Assembly: GCA_018819285.1 (NCBI GenBank)
Contig: JAHJQM010000042.1
Span: forward strand, 45,778 to 109,777
Length of the DNA stretch: 64,000 bases
Source: Candidatus Omnitrophota bacterium
Lineage (GTDB): Bacteria > Omnitrophota > Gorgyraeia > Gorgyraeales > Gorgyraeaceae
Direction of reading: 5' to 3'
Of this stretch, positions 3,049-58,187 are shown piece after piece. Both the position numbers and the translations under genes were made by a program. The stretch's first letter is position 1. Every line of letters begins with the position of its first letter. The notes beneath the pieces were generated by a model. That model had not been told where the DNA came from and ran no database searches. It was given only the letters and a program-made list of their open reading frames with translations.

Positions 3049-4290
3049 TTACGCTTGCACGAATATATCTCGTATCACAACACTTGCTGCACCTAATGCT
3101 ACAGAATCTTCTCCAAGCTTTGCGGGTATTATTTTAACAACATTTGCAGGCTCTTCAAATGCCCATTTTCTAACAGTCCTTCTTAATGGCTCTAAAAGTA
3201 AGCTGCCAGCCTTTTCGATTCCTCCTCCAATAACCACTATTTCAGGGTTAAATAAATTTACAAGATACGCAATCCTTATTCCAAGATTCACAGCTCCGTC
3301 TTCCAGGAGTTCTATTGCAAGAGCATCTCCTGCCTTTGCAGCTTCTATGATATGATCTATTGTAATATTATCCAGTTTATTATCGCAGAATTCAAGTATC
3401 TTTGTCTTAACATCGTCTTCTTTTATAAGTTTTTTGACCTGACTTACTAAACCTAGATCAAGTCCTGCAGGAAGGAGCAAAGAAACATTCTTTGAAACCT
3501 GCAAATATTCTTCGTTGCGTGGACAATTGATCCTTACCTCTCCTGCGCTGCCTGATGCCCCACAATACATAGCACCTTTTATAATAATGCCGCTCCCTAC
3601 ATCGGAATACATGTAAATCACATCCTGTATATCCATAGGAAGAGCGTGCATCTTTTCTCCGAACGCAGCAAAAGTTGCGTCGTTACCTATAAAAGAAGGA
3701 AGCCCAAATCTTTGCTCAATCATCCCTTTTATGGATACATAACTAGCCCTTATCCCATTCTTTGCAGAGTCCCTCACTGTACCGAGATGTTCGTCTATAA
3801 CTCCGCTTACCCCTATACCAACACCTCGTATTTTATTTTTGTCCACGCCTTTTTTCTTTAACAACTCATCTATTAGTTCAAGCGAGGCTTCTATAATCTT
3901 ATCCATACTATCTTTTATTCTGGCCTTTTTCACCTTGGTTATAACCCTTCCTGCAAGATCAGTCACAAGGCCTATCATAGTTGTGCCAAAAACGTCCAAG
4001 TGGCCTAAATCAATCCCTATTGCATACATGCTATCATCATTTAATTTAACAACCGTTGGTTTTCTGCCTCCCGTAGAAACCTCCATGCCCCCTTCTGAAA
4101 CCAGTCCCTTATCAATATAACTATTTATATAGTTAGAAACAGTCACTATGTTCAGGTCTGTAACTTTTGAGATATCAGCTCTTGTAATAGGGCCATTTCT
4201 GCGTATGAGTTCAAGTATTGCAAAATTCTTTCTCTCGTGGTCTGAGAACGTATAATTATCGTACATCCTGCCTTTCCTGATAGCCATCAT
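3049..4290 (-). CDS. ROK-family transcriptional regulator / sugar kinase (NagC/XylR-like)
   Basis: The N-terminus carries an HTH (ILELIRRNGPITRADISKVTDLNIVTVSNYINSYIDKGLV). A ROK sugar-kinase fold follows (GIDLGHLDVFGTT...; GVGIGVSGVID; cysteine/histidine-containing ROK segment YCGASGSAGEV). Confidence 0.75.
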   Translation of the reverse strand: MMAIRKGRMYDNYTFSDHERKNFAILELIRRNGPITRADISKVTDLNIVTVSNYINSYIDKGLVSEGGMEVSTGGRKPTVVKLNDDSMYAIGIDLGHLDVFGTTMIGLVTDLAGRVITKVKKARIKDSMDKIIEASLELIDELLKKKGVDKNKIRGVGIGVSGVIDEHLGTVRDSAKNGIRASYVSIKGMIEQRFGLPSFIGNDATFAAFGEKMHALPMDIQDVIYMYSDVGSGIIIKGAMYCGASGSAGEVRINCPRNEEYLQVSKNVSLLLPAGLDLGLVSQVKKLIKEDDVKTKILEFCDNKLDNITIDHIIEAAKAGDALAIELLEDGAVNLGIRIAYLVNLFNPEIVVIGGGIEKAGSLLLEPLRRTVRKWAFEEPANVVKIIPAKLGEDSVALGAASVVIRDIFVQA

Positions 4291-9064: not shown

Positions 9065-9129
9065 CTAAAATCTAGAGCTATTATATAAAACATACCATTA
9101 AATATCAAGCATAATTGCCCTATTTATTT

Positions 9130-10665
9130 CTACTTTAACTGTCTTTTGAGTATTTTCCCTGTAGCTGTCCTAGGAAAAGTCTGCTTAAATTCTACAAATT
9201 TAGGAATTTTGAATAAAGCCAGATTTTTTCTTAGATATTTAATAACTTCTGATCCGCTGAGTATTTCATTTTCTTTTAAAACAATAAATGCCTTTGGCAC
9301 CTCTCCTTTAAACTTATCAGCTATGCCCACAACTGCCGCTTCTTTAATCTTAGGGTGCTTTAGCAAAACCTTTTCTATTTCTACTGGATAAACATTAAAG
9401 CCCCGCACATTGATCATGTCCTTTTTTCTATCTACAATATAAATATATCCATCTTCATCGAGCTTGGCTATATCGCCTGTATAAAGCCAATTATCTTTTA
9501 TGACTTCCTTTGTTTCGGCGTCGTTATTAAAATACCCTTTCATTATATTATCTCCCTTAACCAGAAGCTCGCCTATCTCATTACAAGTTAACTGGTTATT
9601 CTTATCATCAATTATTTTTACTTCTACGCCCTCAATAGGCAAGCCCACTGAACCAGGTTTTTTTATTCCACGCACTGGATTTAATGATACCACAGGCGAA
9701 GCTTCTGTTAATCCATACCCTTCCACAAGAGGAACTCTGAATTTATTTTCAAAAGCCTTTAAAACCTCTGTTGGTAATGCCGCTGCGCCTGAAATGCAGA
9801 GTTTAATAGGGTCTATAAGCTTAAGCACTCTGGAAGTAAACATATGAGGTATCTCCATATGAGCTAAGACATTAAATATGGCCGGTATGCCTATAAATAC
9901 AGTGATTTTCTTTTTTATTATATTTCTAATAACTCTACGAAAAGGCCTTATGTGTTCGATTATAGTAATGCTAGCTCCCACTGCAAGCGGCAGAAGAATA
10001 CAGACAGTGAAAGCAAAAGAGTGAAACATAGGTAAGACGCAAATAAAATTATCTTTTTCAGACACATCTATGCTGGATATACAACTCTTAACATTGGAGA
10101 GAAAATTTTTATGAGTGAGCATTGCGCCTTTAGGGTTGCCGGTTGTGCCAGAGGTATAAAGTATGGAGGCAATTTCATCTGGTTTTATCAAAACATCTTC
10201 TTTTTTTATAATACTCCTCTCTATCATTTCATAAAAATTAAAAGTATTGGGGGCTAAACCATCTATAATAACAGTATATTTCAAATCGGAAGACTTCATC
10301 TTCGCTGAATTTATAATATCTAAATTTGTAACTGAGCCTATAATAAGCTTTGCGCCGGAATCCTTTAAAATAAATCCAAGCTCCTCCTCCTTTAGCATAT
10401 TATTTATAGGCACGCAGATTGCCTCTATGTTAATAATGGCAAAATAACTGACTATAAATTCCGGGGTATTATGTAAAAATAATGCTACCCTATCTTTCTT
10501 TTTAATACCTAGATTTTTCAGGCCTTGTCCCAACCTGCTGGCTGTATGGTATAATTCCTTATAACTAATCTTTTTATCTAAAAAAAATAAAGCGGTTTTA
10601 TCTGAAAATCTCTCTGCGCTTTTTTCGAACATCATTGTCAAATTTTCAGTTAATCTATCTCTCAT
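9130..10665 (-). CDS. AMP-dependent synthetase/ligase (long-chain fatty-acid--CoA ligase-like)
   Basis: The 511-aa ORF has the AMP-binding signature YTSGTTGNPKGAMLTHKN, the motif GYGLTE and the C-terminal lysine motif PRTATGKILKRQLK. Confidence 0.8.
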   Translation of the reverse strand: MRDRLTENLTMMFEKSAERFSDKTALFFLDKKISYKELYHTASRLGQGLKNLGIKKKDRVALFLHNTPEFIVSYFAIINIEAICVPINNMLKEEELGFILKDSGAKLIIGSVTNLDIINSAKMKSSDLKYTVIIDGLAPNTFNFYEMIERSIIKKEDVLIKPDEIASILYTSGTTGNPKGAMLTHKNFLSNVKSCISSIDVSEKDNFICVLPMFHSFAFTVCILLPLAVGASITIIEHIRPFRRVIRNIIKKKITVFIGIPAIFNVLAHMEIPHMFTSRVLKLIDPIKLCISGAAALPTEVLKAFENKFRVPLVEGYGLTEASPVVSLNPVRGIKKPGSVGLPIEGVEVKIIDDKNNQLTCNEIGELLVKGDNIMKGYFNNDAETKEVIKDNWLYTGDIAKLDEDGYIYIVDRKKDMINVRGFNVYPVEIEKVLLKHPKIKEAAVVGIADKFKGEVPKAFIVLKENEILSGSEVIKYLRKNLALFKIPKFVEFKQTFPRTATGKILKRQLK

Positions 10666-12424
10666 GTTTTTTATACTGCAGTTTACGCTTGGGAAAGATA
10701 TGGCTGCTTAACTTATTTATGGCCAAAAAGATTACGCCAATTGATAATAGAATAAGTAGAATTGCAGTGATGGTCAGCGGATAATTATGTTCTGGCATGT
10801 ACTGTTTGGTCAACATCTCCCAAAGCGAATAAAGGGTAGTTATCATCATGAATATAGCCGGTAAAATAGTAAAAGAGCTGGCCTTTTTGCGCTTGGCCAG
10901 CCATACAGAGACTACAATTAAGCTCAATACTGCCAGAAGCTGGTTTGCCGAACCGAAAATCGGCCAGATTTGCTTGAAGGTGTTAGAATAGCATAAAAGC
11001 AGCATAAGCCCGGCAGATAGAGAAGCATTAAATATATACGACTTAAATATCTTAGGTGGTTTTATCATTATAATCGCCCAGAGTTCTTCGAATAAATAAC
11101 GATTAAGCCTTATTGCTGTATCCAGCGTAGTGATTATAAACCCTTCTATCATTAAAATCCCAAAAACCGTTCCTCCGGCTACTGGAAAGCCTAGAGATTT
11201 ATTCAGCAATGTGCCCATTGCTAATGAAAATGCCAGGACAGGATTGCCTGTTGCGCCTTTCGCTATAGGATTGACAATGCTATTGTAAGTGGCGAAATCC
11301 AATCCGCCTGCCACTGTCAATATTACCAACACAGCCAGAATTGATTCCAGCACCATCCCGCCGTAACCCACTCTTTTGGCGTCAGATTCTCTGGATATCT
11401 GCTTGGAAATAGTCCCTCCTACAACCAGAGTATGAAATCCTGATATCGCGCCGCAGGCAACAGTAATGAAAAGAAACGGCCATATTGGCCCTAGAATATT
11501 CACGCCATTAGCAATATTAAAAGCCGGCGCCTGAAGCTTCACTCCAAGTATGCCCCCGGCGATTATTCCTACAAACAAAAAACAAATCCCAAAATAAAGC
11601 AGGAAGGAATTAATGAAATCCCGCGGCTGTAAAAGTATCCATACCGGAACACCGGCTGTTATAATCACGTAAAAGGTAAGTAATATCATCCATACCTGAG
11701 GGTTAAGCGTCACTGGAAAAACCACTCCCATGATTATGGAAAGTATGCCAATGATTAAAGCAAAAAGCCCTATCAATGCGACATTGCGCTGTTTTTTATA
11801 AAGAAAGAATCCTATCAATGGGGCGCATAAGGTCATTATAATTACTGAGGTGGAAGCAATGCCGCCGATACGAGCTTTGAGTATACCGTCGGAATCAATT
11901 ATTGTTTTTAGTATAGTTTCTCCAGGCGCGACTTTCATTGATTCCAAAGGCACTAGCGATGTCAGGGATATGACAGTCAGGCGCAAGAAAGCAGAGGTGA
12001 CATAAATAAGCATTATAATGGTAAATGAAATAAGCAGAAAAAAACCGAATCTACCTAAGGTGCGGTCAGCTACCTCTGCAATGGAATGGCCTTTTTCCCG
12101 GATGCTTACGAAAAGAGCGGTATAATCCTGGACCGCTCCGATAAATACAGTTCCTAAAACAACCCATAACCATATTGGCGCATAACCAAATATAAGGGCA
12201 ACTGTCGGTCCAATAATCGGGCCTGCTCCTGCTATTGAGGCAAAATGATGAGAAAAAACCACTCCTAGTTTAGTGGGGACGTAGTCCACGCCGTCTTTCA
12301 TGGTAATAGCCGGGGTATGGGTCAAATCATTTTCCTCAAATACCCGAGAGATGAATCCGCCGTAAAATCGGTATGCCAGGAAATAGATAGGTAGGGAAAA
12401 TATAAGTAATAACCCTATATTCAT
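10655..12424 (-). CDS. cstA: Carbon starvation protein CstA (peptide/pyruvate transporter family)
   Basis: The 589-aa polytopic membrane protein has a CstA-type N-terminus (MNIGLLLIFSLPIYFLAYRFYGGFISRVF) and conserved internal segments (GAGPIIGP...; FHTLVVGGTISKQ). An AGGAG RBS precedes the ATG. Confidence 0.85.
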   Translation of the reverse strand: MNIGLLLIFSLPIYFLAYRFYGGFISRVFEENDLTHTPAITMKDGVDYVPTKLGVVFSHHFASIAGAGPIIGPTVALIFGYAPIWLWVVLGTVFIGAVQDYTALFVSIREKGHSIAEVADRTLGRFGFFLLISFTIIMLIYVTSAFLRLTVISLTSLVPLESMKVAPGETILKTIIDSDGILKARIGGIASTSVIIMTLCAPLIGFFLYKKQRNVALIGLFALIIGILSIIMGVVFPVTLNPQVWMILLTFYVIITAGVPVWILLQPRDFINSFLLYFGICFLFVGIIAGGILGVKLQAPAFNIANGVNILGPIWPFLFITVACGAISGFHTLVVGGTISKQISRESDAKRVGYGGMVLESILAVLVILTVAGGLDFATYNSIVNPIAKGATGNPVLAFSLAMGTLLNKSLGFPVAGGTVFGILMIEGFIITTLDTAIRLNRYLFEELWAIIMIKPPKIFKSYIFNASLSAGLMLLLCYSNTFKQIWPIFGSANQLLAVLSLIVVSVWLAKRKKASSFTILPAIFMMITTLYSLWEMLTKQYMPEHNYPLTITAILLILLSIGVIFLAINKLSSHIFPKRKLQYKKHER

Positions 12425-12546
12425 AACGTATCGTCAACTCCTAATATCCTTCAATTAAATAAATTTTACTTTAGGGCTAATCAAGAGTCAAGGATATTTA
12501 TCCAAACTGGTGTATTATTTGAATAATTGGGTAACACATGTTTCAA

Positions 12547-12867
12547 TTGCCAGTCCTGGCAGGCCTTCGAAAAGACGCCCGTCCGCCTCAGCGTGGCGGA
12601 CTTTGCTCCGCGCCGATTCTCGCTCGTCCTGTCCAGGCAGGTCTGAGGCACATTAGAAACGTTTCGGCATCTACGGTAGCTTGCGTATAGGTGCGCAAGG
12701 ATTTACAGCGAGTTTCGGTCGATTGACAATACGATAGTCGGCAGAGAAACGAGCTGTAAACCGTAGCGCACGGCGAAACCAGTTTCAGTGCCGAACAGCC
12801 TACCTGGACAGGACACCCTGCCCGCTCTAATCGGCGAGGCTTTTCTCAGACCTGCCAGGACTGGCAA
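12547..12867. other. A GC-rich, highly self-complementary element of about 320 bp bounded by perfect 17-bp inverted repeats. It is a candidate structured ncRNA, structured leader, or MITE-like element.
   Basis: The terminal repeats are ttgccagtcctggcagg (12547-12563) and cctgccaggactggcaa (12851-12867). Properly nested internal complementarities include 12611-18/12829-36 (cgccgatt/aatcggcg), 12628-37/12804-13 (cctgtccagg/cctggacagg), 12671-76/12761-66 (ctacgg/ccgtag) and 12702-09/12753-60 (tttacagc/gctgtaaa). Local hairpins lie at 12581-12601 (gtccgcc-tcagcgt-ggcggac) and 12680-12699 (cttgcg...cgcaag). The base composition is visibly much richer in G+C than the flanking AT-rich DNA. Confidence 0.5.
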
Positions 12868-12950
12868 AAACCTATAAGTATTACCTGACATTGAAAGTAT
12901 TACAATTTATCCAAACCGGTAGGCACAGTATTATTTACATATTCTTGCTC

Positions 12951-12992
12951 TTAAAAAAAATAAGGCCCGACGTTGTGCTATAGCCGGGCCTT
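12951..12992 (-). terminator. Rho-independent terminator downstream of the cold-shock gene
   Basis: The GC stem aaggcccg...cgggcctt (12962-12992) is followed on the minus strand by a T-run (plus-strand aaaaaaaa at 12953-12960). It lies 14 bp after the csp stop. Confidence 0.55.
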
Positions 12993-13005
12993 ATTTGCAT
13001 CTAAG

Positions 13006-13209
13006 TTATATCTTTACTACGTTTGTTGCTTGAGGTCCCTTGGGTCCCTCTCCGATTTCAAATTCAACTGCCTGTCCTTCGCTCAAAGATTTAAAACCTT
13101 CGCCTTGAATCGCATTATGGTGAACAAAACAATCTTTGCTTCCATCATCAGGTGTAATAAACCCATAACCTTTTTGGTCGTTGAACCACTTAACTTTTCC
13201 TTTTGCCAT
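13006..13209 (-). CDS. cspA: Cold-shock protein, CspA family
   Basis: The 67-aa sequence [35 protein letters not shown]... carries the canonical RNP1/RNP2 motifs (KGYGFI, CFVHH). About 165 nt of untranslated leader lie upstream, as is typical of csp genes. Confidence 0.9.
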
Positions 13210-13424: not shown

Positions 13425-16400
13425 CTAGATATCATCCCTATAATCTCTTTTGATGTCTTGTATTGTCGCTGGACTAAGGTCGTATTCTATGAGGTCCTTA
13501 CTTTTAGCTATCTCCGCAGCTTCAAGGTGCATTTTGAGATCCAGGCTGGCATTGCGATAGTTAATTAAAGATGCCGGCATACGATCCAGACCCATGAGTT
13601 TTCTGAATTTATTATAAGTTTTGCCGACTACGGAGCGATCCATAGAAAGCTTACGTCCGATTTCTCTATTTGATAATCCTTGGATCTTATAGCTAAGAAT
13701 CCTGCTTCCATTTACAATAGTTTTCAGCAACCTGACATCAGCTTTTTCGACAAGACCCATTTCATCAGCTATCCCAACAACATAAAGACATTGCTCGAGT
13801 CTAGCAGCGTAACCCTCATCTTTCACAGGATACAACCCCAGCTTTCTTATAGCGCTAATGTAAAATTTCGCATTAAGAGCCTCAGTCACGCCTTTCTCTA
13901 ATAACAGTTTAGGCACACTAGCCAGTGTTTTTTTTTCTCTCGGATTGAGTTGAGGCAAGCCTAGAAATCGCCTTAACAGAGCAAAATCAACATTGACCAC
14001 TCCGTTTTCTCTAGCCTGATTTAATTCATCCGAGCTAGTATAAGTATAGATCAAAGCCCTTTTAAATGTTCTGTGAATATCTTCTTGCCTGTATTTAAAA
14101 TCTGTCTGTTCGCGTAGAGCCCTTGCCCATATGACAAAAAAGTACAGGAATTCACTGCCTTTTGTTTTCCTGATTTTTCCATGTTCTGATTTATAAATAA
14201 GGGCTCTACCCACGACATCTTCATAGCTGTGGCCTATTCTGTTATTTCTCCACGCTTCAATTAATCTATCCGCTTCCATCTCTACATCAACACTCTTTGC
14301 TCCAAATTTAACCGCTTCTGTCAATATCTCTGCTAATATTGAATTTTCATCCGGGATCTTTCTTTGCCAGAACGTATCCAATTTTTCGAGCGCAATTAAC
14401 ATATCAAGGTCTAACATTGCCTCGCAAGCGCTAATAAGTAATCTCTGTTCCCTGGCATCGGCCGGATAGTAGGATTCATGACTTTCGCTTAATTTACCAA
14501 ATTCTATTTTCTCTGACCATGGCTTGCCGTTCTGGTTAACAACCCTGTCTTTTTCATCTATAATTGTGGCACTGACAGGCTCTCTGTATAGAAAACGGAC
14601 CTTAACAAGCAGGCCTGCGGCTTTATTACGTGGCTCAAAGTATGCTAGATACTTGCCAAGTATAAACAGATTTGCTTGCTGACTAAGCCTTAGCCAGAAA
14701 AGATAACTATCCGCAGACCCATCCAATACATCAAGATTGACTTCAGACCATAGGTAACGGGCATCCTCTTTATCGCCTTCGGCCTGACCTATCCACCTGC
14801 CTGTAATATTATCGAAAACAGCATATCTAAATCCTCTTTCTCTTGTCTTTTCATCCAAATCCCTTTCTCGTATAGGATACAATCTAGCCACCTGCCTTCT
14901 TACATACCACTGATGCCTCTCTGAAGCAGGCCTTATATCAAGCGTAAGGGGATTACCCAGATAGTTCACAATAGGATTGCCTCTATAATCCAGGGTAGGC
15001 TTTCCGTCTTCATCCACAAATCGCATCCTCGACATATAATAGTCTGCGTGCGTATTTTTCCGTGCAGTTGTCCAATCAAATTCTGCTTCAAACCTTGCTC
15101 CTTGCAGCCTTTTATCTTCAAGCGTAACCCACTTCTTGGGCATTTTTTGCTTGGAGCTAGGTGTTGTATTTAGCCCTAAGGACACAGTTCCGTCTTTCTT
15201 GCTTACATAGACCTTCTCTCCACTTACTAAAATCCTGCGCCCCTCGAATATCATCATCCTGCTCCAGCTTAACCTATTGCAAGAACCTGCAAGTTTCAAT
15301 TCGCCATTGTCTTCGATAATATATATAAGAAGCGGTTTTATTACCTTAATTATTCTCCCGTCTTTTACAATCCTGACCTGCGTTACCTGCCCCTGGACAA
15401 CATCAAACTCTATTTCCGAGCCTTTGTGCTCTCCTAAATTTAATCTGTGCTTTCCGCCTATATGAAGTTTACTCGACGCTGGGAAATGACCTATGGTAAC
15501 CCTGTCTAACTTTGAAAAATCCTCTCCGGATATTCCCTTCGCCTGGTCAAAATAAGTAACATCCCCTGTATCCCAGTGATAAATAAAAGCCTTGTTATCC
15601 TTCCGTTTGTCAGATGTGGTGTATTCAATCAATTTTTCGGAACGGATAAGTAGTTGTAAATACCCAAGATACCCGGCCTTCTCATCCATCTCTCTTCCGT
15701 ATTTTTTAATAAAACCAATGTATTGTTCAGTATGGCTGGCATCAAGGGAAGTTATTGTATTTTTAACACAGTCTTCAGCAAGGGCCTGTTCTGTGGCCTC
15801 ATCTCCCTTAACCCCTCTTTCATGGGCAAGTTCCTCTGAGAGAATAGAGGTTATAAGCTCGGTTATGAAGCCTAAGTCTTCGTTATTTTGTATCATGGCC
15901 TCGATATCAGAAGCATTGAGTATGATAAGGTTATTCTTACGGTGGTCTCCTGCTATATAGTCATATTTATCAGCAAGGACTATTGTTATGTTTTTGGCTA
16001 AGTTTCCTTCATAAAGAGATTTGGAACGGGAAATGGCATTTACAAGGTTGTCTTTTATATATTGGATTAATCTTGTTCTTTCTTTTCCTCTTGTAGGTCC
16101 TCTTATGGTAAAGGTTATATTGGCGTCTCTACCTGCAGGAGATATTGCTGCCAGTAAAGGCAGGGCGTTGAGCCTATTGTCTATACCAGTGATGTTATAT
16201 TCTTCGTTATCCATTGCAAATACATCTGTCCTTCCTTCTTTTGTATGGCTGTTGAGCTTGGAGAAAAGGGAGAAGTGGGTTGAAATCGGTTTCGAGTTAG
16301 GTTTGTTATATTGTCTTAGATAGTAAGTTCCTTTAAAAATACTAAAATGCAGTATCCTGTTGATAATACTGCCGAAGATAAGATAGGTTTCTATCAAGCG

Positions 16401-17303
16401 CCTGCCTATTTTGTTAGAATTTTTTTTCAAGCGGACCACTAGCATTTCAGGCATATTAAAAAACTGTAATATCTTATATAGCAGGAGTGCTGTAATTTTA
16501 ATAAAGAATTGACCTGAGATGAGGACTCCGAAATATAAAGCGGCAGGAACTGAAATAAAACTGGATACTGGTTTTCCATAAACAATAACTCCATTCCCTC
16601 TCGCGCCTATATCAATATTCAATTTACCTATAAGATAAATAACAATAGACTTGAGAGAATTTAATAGAGGGCGCGTACCTAATATCACAGTTTCTACAGG
16701 GACATCTAGGCCTTCAACATGCAGAGCTTCAAACGTAGCTCCAGGGCCAGATAAATGCACAACAACATCCACATCTAAAGCTTCTGTTTTATTTCTATGC
16801 CATAGATACGATCCATGAATAATTATAGATTCAACGATGCTCCTCTCGGGGAGATTTCCTGATTGCCTCAATTCCTCCATTCTCAAAAGTATCCTCTGAA
16901 CTACAGGTTTCAGGTAATTTAGCCTATTGGATATTTCGGCCCTGCTGATATCATCATTACGAATAATATTCCAATACCAGTTGGAATTAGGTACTGCCTG
17001 CAAAATAGTATCGATATTTTGATATCTAATATCAACGATTTCTTTATCTGACAGATTTAGCGCTAGAGGCAAGGATTCGTTCATGCCCCTGCTTTCCTTA
17101 TCTTCTTTTAAGCCGCTGGATTGCGCTGCGCTTAAACTTTCCGATAATCTCTCCCGTCCATCTTTACTGTTAGAAATAAGTTGAGGCCTCAGATTGGTTT
17201 TTTTGGGTAGTTCTATGCCATAGCATGTACTTGTAACAGTAAAAGTTATAAGTACAATTGTTGCTATTATCCTTATGATAAAAAGTTTTTTAAAGTTTAA
17301 CAT
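13425..17303 (-). CDS. Giant 1292-aa hypothetical protein. Architecture: N-terminal signal/anchor, minimal nucleotidyltransferase (pol-beta superfamily) motif, TM helices, about 800 aa of unknown function, and a C-terminal LuxR/GerE-type HTH.
   Basis: The signal-like N-terminus is MLNFKKLFIIRIIATIVLITFTVTSTCYG. The nucleotidyltransferase signature is IIIHGSYLWHRNKTEALDVDVVVH (hG[GS]...DhDhhh). A hydrophobic stretch follows (FISVPAALYFGVLISGQFFIKITALLLYKIL). The C-terminal HTH reads LSNREIGRKLSMDRSVVGKTYNKFRKLMG, which matches the LuxR/FixJ consensus. I recognise no other family signatures. Confidence 0.5.
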   Translation of the reverse strand: MLNFKKLFIIRIIATIVLITFTVTSTCYGIELPKKTNLRPQLISNSKDGRERLSESLSAAQSSGLKEDKESRGMNESLPLALNLSDKEIVDIRYQNIDTILQAVPNSNWYWNIIRNDDISRAEISNRLNYLKPVVQRILLRMEELRQSGNLPERSIVESIIIHGSYLWHRNKTEALDVDVVVHLSGPGATFEALHVEGLDVPVETVILGTRPLLNSLKSIVIYLIGKLNIDIGARGNGVIVYGKPVSSFISVPAALYFGVLISGQFFIKITALLLYKILQFFNMPEMLVVRLKKNSNKIGRRLIETYLIFGSIINRILHFSIFKGTYYLRQYNKPNSKPISTHFSLFSKLNSHTKEGRTDVFAMDNEEYNITGIDNRLNALPLLAAISPAGRDANITFTIRGPTRGKERTRLIQYIKDNLVNAISRSKSLYEGNLAKNITIVLADKYDYIAGDHRKNNLIILNASDIEAMIQNNEDLGFITELITSILSEELAHERGVKGDEATEQALAEDCVKNTITSLDASHTEQYIGFIKKYGREMDEKAGYLGYLQLLIRSEKLIEYTTSDKRKDNKAFIYHWDTGDVTYFDQAKGISGEDFSKLDRVTIGHFPASSKLHIGGKHRLNLGEHKGSEIEFDVVQGQVTQVRIVKDGRIIKVIKPLLIYIIEDNGELKLAGSCNRLSWSRMMIFEGRRILVSGEKVYVSKKDGTVSLGLNTTPSSKQKMPKKWVTLEDKRLQGARFEAEFDWTTARKNTHADYYMSRMRFVDEDGKPTLDYRGNPIVNYLGNPLTLDIRPASERHQWYVRRQVARLYPIRERDLDEKTRERGFRYAVFDNITGRWIGQAEGDKEDARYLWSEVNLDVLDGSADSYLFWLRLSQQANLFILGKYLAYFEPRNKAAGLLVKVRFLYREPVSATIIDEKDRVVNQNGKPWSEKIEFGKLSESHESYYPADAREQRLLISACEAMLDLDMLIALEKLDTFWQRKIPDENSILAEILTEAVKFGAKSVDVEMEADRLIEAWRNNRIGHSYEDVVGRALIYKSEHGKIRKTKGSEFLYFFVIWARALREQTDFKYRQEDIHRTFKRALIYTYTSSDELNQARENGVVNVDFALLRRFLGLPQLNPREKKTLASVPKLLLEKGVTEALNAKFYISAIRKLGLYPVKDEGYAARLEQCLYVVGIADEMGLVEKADVRLLKTIVNGSRILSYKIQGLSNREIGRKLSMDRSVVGKTYNKFRKLMGLDRMPASLINYRNASLDLKMHLEAAEIAKSKDLIEYDLSPATIQDIKRDYRDDI

Positions 17304-58129: not shown

Positions 58130-58187
58130 TAATTCCTAAGATCGCAATAGGGCAGGCTTAATCCTGCCCTATTGCTAACACAAACCT

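Follow-up and report, generated by a model that had tools for sequence, protein, structure and literature searches.

The window, i.e. the whole 64,000-nucleotide stretch of DNA that was analysed, carries the genes csp and cstA on its minus strand, and between the csp terminator and cstA, as the initial annotation had it, lies a conspicuous GC-rich rod, the feature first reported. The genes, the cstA promoter and the rod have the following window coordinates.

10655-12424, minus strand: cstA, with its start codon at 12424
12463-12491, minus strand: host cstA promoter, with the -35 hexamer TTGACT at 12491-12486, a 17-nt spacer and the -10 hexamer TAAAAT at 12468-12463; not part of the element
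12547-12867, no strand assigned: GC-rich rod, 321 bp, with a 17-bp perfect / 28-nt imperfect terminal inverted repeat
13006-13209, minus strand: csp, with its terminator at 12958-12996

CstA shares 90% identity with a protein of Candidatus Omnitrophica CG1_02_40_15 and its closest 20 homologues are metagenomic, which places the window in an Omnitrophota genome and not in that of a Firmicute. Its promoter scored 10/12 in a promoter scan, and contigs L166-L168, which are without the element, keep a 70-nt block just upstream of cstA that includes TTGACT-17-TAAAAT. At the nine orthologous cstA loci compared (81-92% identity) the element is absent, the upstream spacers being 5-245 bp long and the upstream genes differing. 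A csp-cstA junction without the element was sought for comparison and none was found; cstA lacks a conserved neighbourhood, and the sole csp-cstA contig found (L182) has the same 582-bp spacer with an identically scoring copy of the element. The large ORFs scanned at 1-27 kb of the window encode no transposase, reverse transcriptase, TnpB or IscB domain, which, for that region, agrees with what had been noted from the sequence.

Other aspects of the window may also be recorded. The cstA and downstream AMP-binding enzyme ORFs overlap by 11 nt (10655-10665); the two genes are neighbours in L163, L164 and L182 as well, and their order is reversed in L171 and L172. A 1292-aa ORF with no Pfam domain lies just upstream of csp (13425-17303, minus strand) and is conserved at the corresponding place in L182. 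Two minus-strand ORFs are separated by a 58-nt spacer that contains abutting 16-nt arms, GCAATAGGGCAGGCTT / AATCCTGCCCTATTGC, which form a near-perfect 32-nt palindrome (58144-58175).

The rod has the composition and fold first ascribed to it. Its G+C content is 57.3%, compared with 40.8% across the window, and the window contains its terminal sequence TTGCCAGTCCTGGCAGG at just two places, 12547-12563 on the plus strand and 12851-12867 on the minus strand, where shuffles give an expectation of 0.07 matches; the 17-bp perfect repeat reaches 28 nt at 89% complementarity. Each rod terminus, GCCAGnnCTGGC, is a small palindrome by itself. The predicted fold comprises ~90 base pairs in nested helices together with two side hairpins, with an MFE of -168.5 kcal/mol (z = -9.2) for the minus strand and of -164.3 kcal/mol (z = -10.8) for the plus strand, values that no shuffle equalled in either case. 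All of the nested long-range helices described at the outset were recovered (12608-18/12829-39, 12626-41/12799-814 and 12691-716/12746-771). The mutually exclusive helix proposed along with them is present as a pairing of 20 nt at 90% in the window copy (12628-47/12845-64), but is missing from the other family copies examined. An Rfam search, which had been recommended as a check, matched no known family to the window element, either at the gathering threshold (whole window) or at E <= 10 (the region), the sole exception being a chance 17-bit CRISPR-repeat match. Nor did Rfam 15 give a match within the copies in L163, L173, L176 and L179 that are introduced below, the hits overall being tRNAs and chance matches only. 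A BLAST search of plasmid and phage collections with the element matched nothing.

Although the rod is real, the unit to which it belongs is larger than the 12547-12867 first delimited. The full unit is 394 bp long (12511-12904) and consists of AT-rich arms (~36 nt each) that enclose the rod and give the unit 5'-TGT...ACA-3' ends; it is bordered by direct repeats of 15 bp.

12496-12510, no strand assigned: promoter-proximal target-site duplication, ATTTATCCAAACTGG, 15 bp, direct repeat
12511-12546, plus strand: arm T1, TGTATTATTTGAATAATTGGGTAACACATGTTTCAA, AT-rich, beginning 5'-TGT
12868-12904, minus strand: arm T2, TGTAATACTTTCAATGTCAGGTAATACTTATAGGTTT as read inward on the minus strand, the plus strand ending ...ACA-3'
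12905-12919, no strand assigned: distal target-site duplication, ATTTATCCAAACCGG, 14/15 identical to 12496-12510
12920-12945, plus strand: T1-like relic, consisting of T, a 7-nt insert (AGGCACA) and then GTATTATTTACATATTC, which resembles the first 17 nt of T1

Read as an inverted repeat from the sequence, T1 and T2 match at 17 of 27 positions. The arms are conserved between the window, L176 and L163 (T1, TGTATTATTTGAATAaTTgGGTAAC...; T2, TGTAATACTTTCAATGTCAGGTAAT...) and are imperfect inverted repeats of each other, with GGTAAC at arm positions 20-25 conserved among copies. The window T1 arm is identical to the L176 arm (3781-3805) at 23 of 25 positions and is recognisable in L163 (7779-7803, minus strand), whereas T2 recurs in L163 (from 7322) and in L178 (1592-1616). 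Duplications are found at other loci as well: a perfect one, 15/15, around T1-rod-T2 in L176 (TTAGTTTACTATGGG), one matching at 12/15 around T2-rodA-rodB-T1 in L163 (ATAGGTAAGACGATT / ATAGGTAGGGCAATT), and one of ~13/15 at the L179 locus. Direct repeats of 15 bp placed just outside the arms are a signature of transposition with a 15-bp staggered cut. The unit is non-coding; overlapping ORFs are of 48-62 aa only, and the two that were scanned had no Pfam match. The T1-like relic past the distal duplication, which underlies a direct repeat between 12512-25 and 12928-41, is what repeated insertion into one target would leave, and may be left over from an older copy that had inserted there in tandem.

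A metagenome collection was scanned with a degenerate 29-nt arm pattern, GCCAGNNCTRGCAGGYCTNNNGAAAAGMC, that covers all four known arms, and this yielded 7 metagenome loci, against a chance expectation that is essentially zero as estimated from the degeneracy of the pattern. The copies can be aligned with the window element from end to end and not just at its termini, with ~80% column identity, and the family now extends to ~10 loci in differing contexts on related Omnitrophota contigs. The copies are as follows, with coordinates of the respective contigs.

L173, 3842-4147: copy of 306 bp
L175, 619-792: copy of 174 bp, sharing the L173 locus and lacking 132 nt internally
L176, 3817-4247: copy of 431 bp, with a nested ~85-nt hairpin
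L179, 1409-1749: copy of 341 bp
L179, from 4926: second copy, 3.2 kb away, start only
L177: copy cut by the contig end
L178: truncated copy
L174 and L163-B: copies of a degenerate subtype
L190, 7755-7993 and ~10068-10340: two copies, the first intergenic and the second inside a gene

Members of the family adjoin pilus, tRNA, ABC-transporter, PilZ and aroB genes, and the orientation of the rod relative to the arms or neighbouring genes flips between copies (window versus L176, L177 versus L179 at one locus, and L173 versus L190 at another). Two contigs (L179 and L190) have two copies each; the 64-kb window has a single one. Decay of the kind usual in selfish repeats, and nesting, are evident in the 132-nt deletion of L175, in the truncation of L178 and in insertions nested within the copies of L176 and L190. 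The nested hairpin of L176 (~85 nt, at ~4066-4157) is flanked by an imperfect ~20-nt duplication; a mini-hairpin, GTCCCGAC...GTCGGGAC, occurs at two places in L176, and a similar TCCCGAC...GTCGGGA is present in L178. In L173/L175, L179 and the second L179 copy the outer arms are very short or absent and the duplications only degenerate, so that the arms may perhaps be dispensable or the short-armed copies may be old. Other searches returned little: the exact 17-mer, which holds two copy-specific bases, gave 75 single matches in the genome collection, none of which extends, where ~69 are estimated by chance, and the scan of viral contigs with a 15-mer and the degenerate arm gave chance matches or none. 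The dozens of near-identical copies that had been put forward as the mark of a MITE were not seen, the family appearing instead to be low-copy and diverged (~80% identity).

Comparison of filled with empty sites is possible in three cases, i.e. at window positions 9113-9127 versus L163, in L191/L192 versus L190, and in the rod-less homologues of a PilX-like pilus protein. The closest named genome (L163, GCA_001871815.1) has no insert at cstA. On alignment, however, its AMP-binding gene is separated from a tRNA promoter by ~500 bp that the window, where the target is empty, does not have.

9113-9127, minus strand: empty target site, ATAAATAGGGCAATT (9127-9113), single copy in the window, occupied by a family member in L163

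The L163 insert consists of two adjacent GC-rich rods that fold with -207 kcal/mol (z = -11.9), the second with arms like those in the window. A GC-rich rod of ~244 bp at L163 7351-7594 is of unrelated sequence, with the terminal repeat ACGCAGTCCCTAGCCTTGCTCGC, and shares an outer arm pair with a family member; the presence of an unrelated rod inside the same arms implies that more than one rod family exists. The second comparison concerns the intergenic copy of L190, which is missing from L191 and L192.

The third comparison comes from the L173/L175 locus, where a PilX-like pilus gene contains the rod in its N-terminal region. PilX-like homologues without a rod start MxKMFIxNQMLRQRISNNKGLSLVAVV, and together with an empty site in L191 (10040-10075) they fix the point of insertion. 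In-frame inserts are found at this one point, of 102 codons in L173, 58 in L175/P0123 and ~100 in P0135 (L190), and no insert is present in the homologues P0122, P0126, P0127 and P0133. In L190 the inserted rod is oppositely oriented and has a further rod nested within it. Such in-frame copies point to selfish DNA that is tolerated by the host and indicate that palindromic repeats can be tolerable inside proteins outside Rickettsia.

The inverted-repeat ends, the 15-bp duplication, the occurrence at unrelated loci and the filled versus empty sites all support the MITE option among those raised at the outset, and we consider it likely that 12511-12904 is a MITE-like non-autonomous transposon. 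The feature is a member of a mobile palindromic family of the Omnitrophota that has no earlier description, although the MITE-like kind is itself already known; our literature searches found no described Omnitrophota RNA motif, MITE or mobile repeat, and no IS1202-derived MITE. The unit would have entered the csp-cstA spacer, duplicating 15 bp of its target, and its movement in trans would depend on an IS1202-family DDE transposase, probably of the long-duplication (ISTde1-type) branch. The rod would be selfish cargo that does not regulate cstA, the complementarity of its two arms being kept either since the hairpin matters, as single-stranded DNA or as RNA, or through arm-to-arm gene conversion.

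Mobilisation of the IS1202 type is proposed because the TGT/ACA ends, the ~25-bp imperfect repeats and the 15-bp duplications match a published combination, to whose conserved block near position 20 the GGTAAC of the arms may correspond. Members of the IS1202 family have TGT/ACA ends and imperfect inverted repeats of 24-26 bp (PMC10132070), and those of the ISTde1 subgroup generate 15-17-bp duplications and have inverted repeats that begin TGT and show a second conserved stretch around position 20 (bioRxiv 10.1101/2022.12.17.520857). Neither the window nor ~225 kb of related loci contain a transposase gene between the same arms, i.e. no autonomous partner was found there, and no TnsB-like DDE transposase (~400-500 aa) lies beside any copy. 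Two candidates were considered and rejected. A 404-aa ORF that resembles a transposase and lies next to the L178 copy is part of a different IS, with ends GGGGGTATGATGTC... and tandem copies, and an AAA_22/TniB-like ATPase beside the L179 copy has housekeeping genes (RNase III, aroB) around it and no transposase. The two tandem IS copies of L178 (1-1615; HTH and LZ_Tnp_IS481 domains) end 14 bp from the T2 arm of the truncated family member.

A striking feature of the intact copies is their position relative to promoters. In three of three (window, L163 and L176) the 15-bp duplication adjoins the T1 end and exactly 4 nt separate it from a -35 hexamer, in the same orientation; in the window these 4 nt are 12492-12495, and the T1 end is 19 bp upstream of the cstA -35. 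The promoters at that offset are sigma-70-like and score 10-11/12, being TTGACT-17-TAAAAT in the window (cstA), TTGATA-17-TATAAT in L163 (tRNA) and TTGACA-17-TACAAT in L176 (ABC transporter). The promoters are the host's; their sequences differ between loci and are present at empty sites. The tRNA promoter TTGATA-17-TATAAT is found at window 9108-9080 beside the intact, empty 15-bp target, and the corresponding insertion of L163 lies 15 + 4 nt upstream of it. Promoter-like sites of that quality occur in the window at ~3e-4 per position per strand, making two further insertions with the same offset and orientation very unlikely by chance. At a fourth, degenerate locus (L177/L179) the duplication is 7 nt from TTGAAA-17-TATAAT and the other arm type is proximal, which shows that the offset rule is not absolute. 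The fixed offset from -35 hexamers suggests targeted insertion, and the mobilisation envisaged for the unit may accordingly be aimed at a fixed distance from promoter -35 elements. Three copies have a promoter within T1 that is directed into the rod (TTGAAT-17-TTCAAT/TGTAAT); since the rod strand transcribed from it would not be the same one in every copy, it was not counted as evidence.

These observations can be combined into a more ambitious and rather doubtful proposal, namely that the element is a non-autonomous transposon that reads promoters, inserting in one orientation exactly 19 bp upstream of a sigma-70-type -35 hexamer, and that the rod is needed for its mobilisation. Recognition might be via the -35 sequence itself or via bound RNA polymerase, compare the ISAba32-type relatives at XerC-bound dif sites, and the conserved rod would then be a structured single-stranded RNA or DNA required for movement rather than inert filler. 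No specific target preference has been seen for the long-duplication members of the IS1202 family (PMC10132070). Should the 19-bp offset hold in more copies, it would represent a new target choice among bacterial transposons and the first known target for this branch.

Of the alternatives to a MITE-like element with selfish cargo, the one that survives best, while still unlikely, is that the rod is a structured ncRNA carried as cargo in a mobile unit, e.g. as an RNase III substrate, a regulatory RNA or an RNA with a role in transposition, and that its fold is under selection at the RNA level. Covariation was analysed on the four full-length copies (~80% identical), for which the consensus fold has 91 pairs. 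Across these copies, 96.1% of cells are paired, and 15 pairs are changed on both sides, compared with 4.7 +/- 1.8 in column shuffles (0 of 500 as high) and with 1-4 when the partners were slid. Most of the variation falls in helix P4, in the tip and in the stem of the 3' side hairpin, while the loop of that hairpin, YCGCUGR, is constant and several asymmetric internal loops are invariant. The conserved loops and the compensatory pairs exceed what is typical of a MITE interior, such that a function of the folded single strand has some probability, and the G+C content of the rods, ~57-64% as against ~41% for the window, likewise speaks for an RNA.

The evidence as to which strand might act is less favourable to such an RNA. 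G-U pairs exceed A-C mismatches by 10 to 2 in the window-minus orientation for the 80 pairs predicted on both strands, and that orientation gives a slightly better fold for six of seven copies, single-sequence energies differing by only a few kcal/mol. However, when pairs predicted on either strand are pooled the count is 18 to 14, which is not significant, and the consensus fold is more stable on the opposite strand (-136.5 versus -128.9 kcal/mol). An initial count of 16 to 3 was set aside, being biased by a structure predicted on one strand. No strand or adjacent gene is consistently preferred among copies, the rod occurring in both orientations relative to arms and genes, and no consistent promoter or terminator flanks it. 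Gene conversion can maintain the complementarity of inverted-repeat arms, and could also have preserved it here. Copies persist despite the 132-nt deletion, truncation and nested insertions, and none of those searched has an Rfam family. The novel structured ncRNA originally suggested as one option keeps a low probability for the rod itself, whose complementarity and several internal loops are conserved, but for which no strand preference could be shown; the existence of deleted, flipped, nested and in-frame copies argues against a single functional RNA gene, and the feature is probably not a free-standing ncRNA gene.

It is considerably less probable that the element is a hairpin repeat moved as single-stranded DNA by a Y1 HUH transposase, of the REPIN/RAYT or IS200/IS605-like kind. 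The entire element folds on itself and its GCCAGnnCTGGC termini are palindromic on their own, as would suit such a route, and a gene for a 197-aa Y1_Tnp protein (PF01797) lies close to cstA, two genes upstream, in L171 (1439-2032) and L172 (243-836). Neither a rod nor an arm is near these genes, however, and at 170-430 bp the elements are several times the length of REP-type repeats. HUH single-strand transposition leaves no target duplication, whereas 15-bp duplications flank three intact copies.

Hardly credible at all is a cis-regulatory leader, riboswitch or attenuator of cstA with mutually exclusive helices, as first envisaged: although the element lies upstream of cstA on the same strand and its window copy can form the 20-nt alternative pairing, that helix is missing in other copies, the family adjoins unrelated genes in both orientations, cstA orthologues in relatives do without the element, and the sole strong cstA promoter, conserved in such relatives, lies downstream of the element, between it and the gene, which places the element outside the cstA leader, so that on sequence grounds a riboswitch or cstA mRNA leader is contradicted.

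The assignment as a MITE-like transposon removes a false lead, in that the GC-rich fold upstream of cstA is no new riboswitch or leader, and documents a mobile repeat family in the Omnitrophota, an uncultured phylum. GC-rich rods of this type will be recurrent false positives for structure-based ncRNA screens in AT-rich uncultured genomes.

With respect to known systems, the family resembles the Rickettsia palindromic elements in that copies are found both in frame in genes and in intergenic regions, the PilX-like versions keeping the frame open. Ogata et al. reportedly described, in 2000, Rickettsia palindromic repeats of at least 100 bp that are intergenic and also in frame within protein-coding genes. 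The Rickettsia elements are, however, shorter and AT-rich, and we know of no comparable target duplications described for them; the window copy studied here lies between genes. Enterobacterial ERIC, Neisseria Correia and Pseudomonas REPIN sequences, which reach tens to hundreds of copies and can share a transcript with their neighbours, are likewise dispersed intergenic imperfect palindromes that form long hairpins, but at 70-160 bp, with no duplication or one of TA, they differ from the GC-rich, low-copy Omnitrophota elements of 170-430 bp with their 15-bp duplications. The ISAba32/ISAjo2 subgroup of IS1202 shares oriented insertion at a small fixed distance from a protein-binding site and the repeated or tandem use of one site, with which the T1-like relic at 12920-12945 may be compared, although its duplications are of 5-6 bp and its targets are XerC/D (dif-like) sites, whereas here the duplications are of 15 bp and the neighbouring site is a sigma-70-type -35. 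In the case of the ISTde1 subgroup, the GC-rich palindromic interior, which is unrelated to a transposase gene, and the fixed promoter offset set the Omnitrophota elements apart, whereas a non-coding unit of a few hundred bp is what a MITE derived from such insertion sequences would be, GGTAAC at positions 20-25 may correspond to the published block near position 20, and the TGT/ACA ends, the imperfect repeats of ~25-35 bp and the 15-bp duplication agree with the published description.
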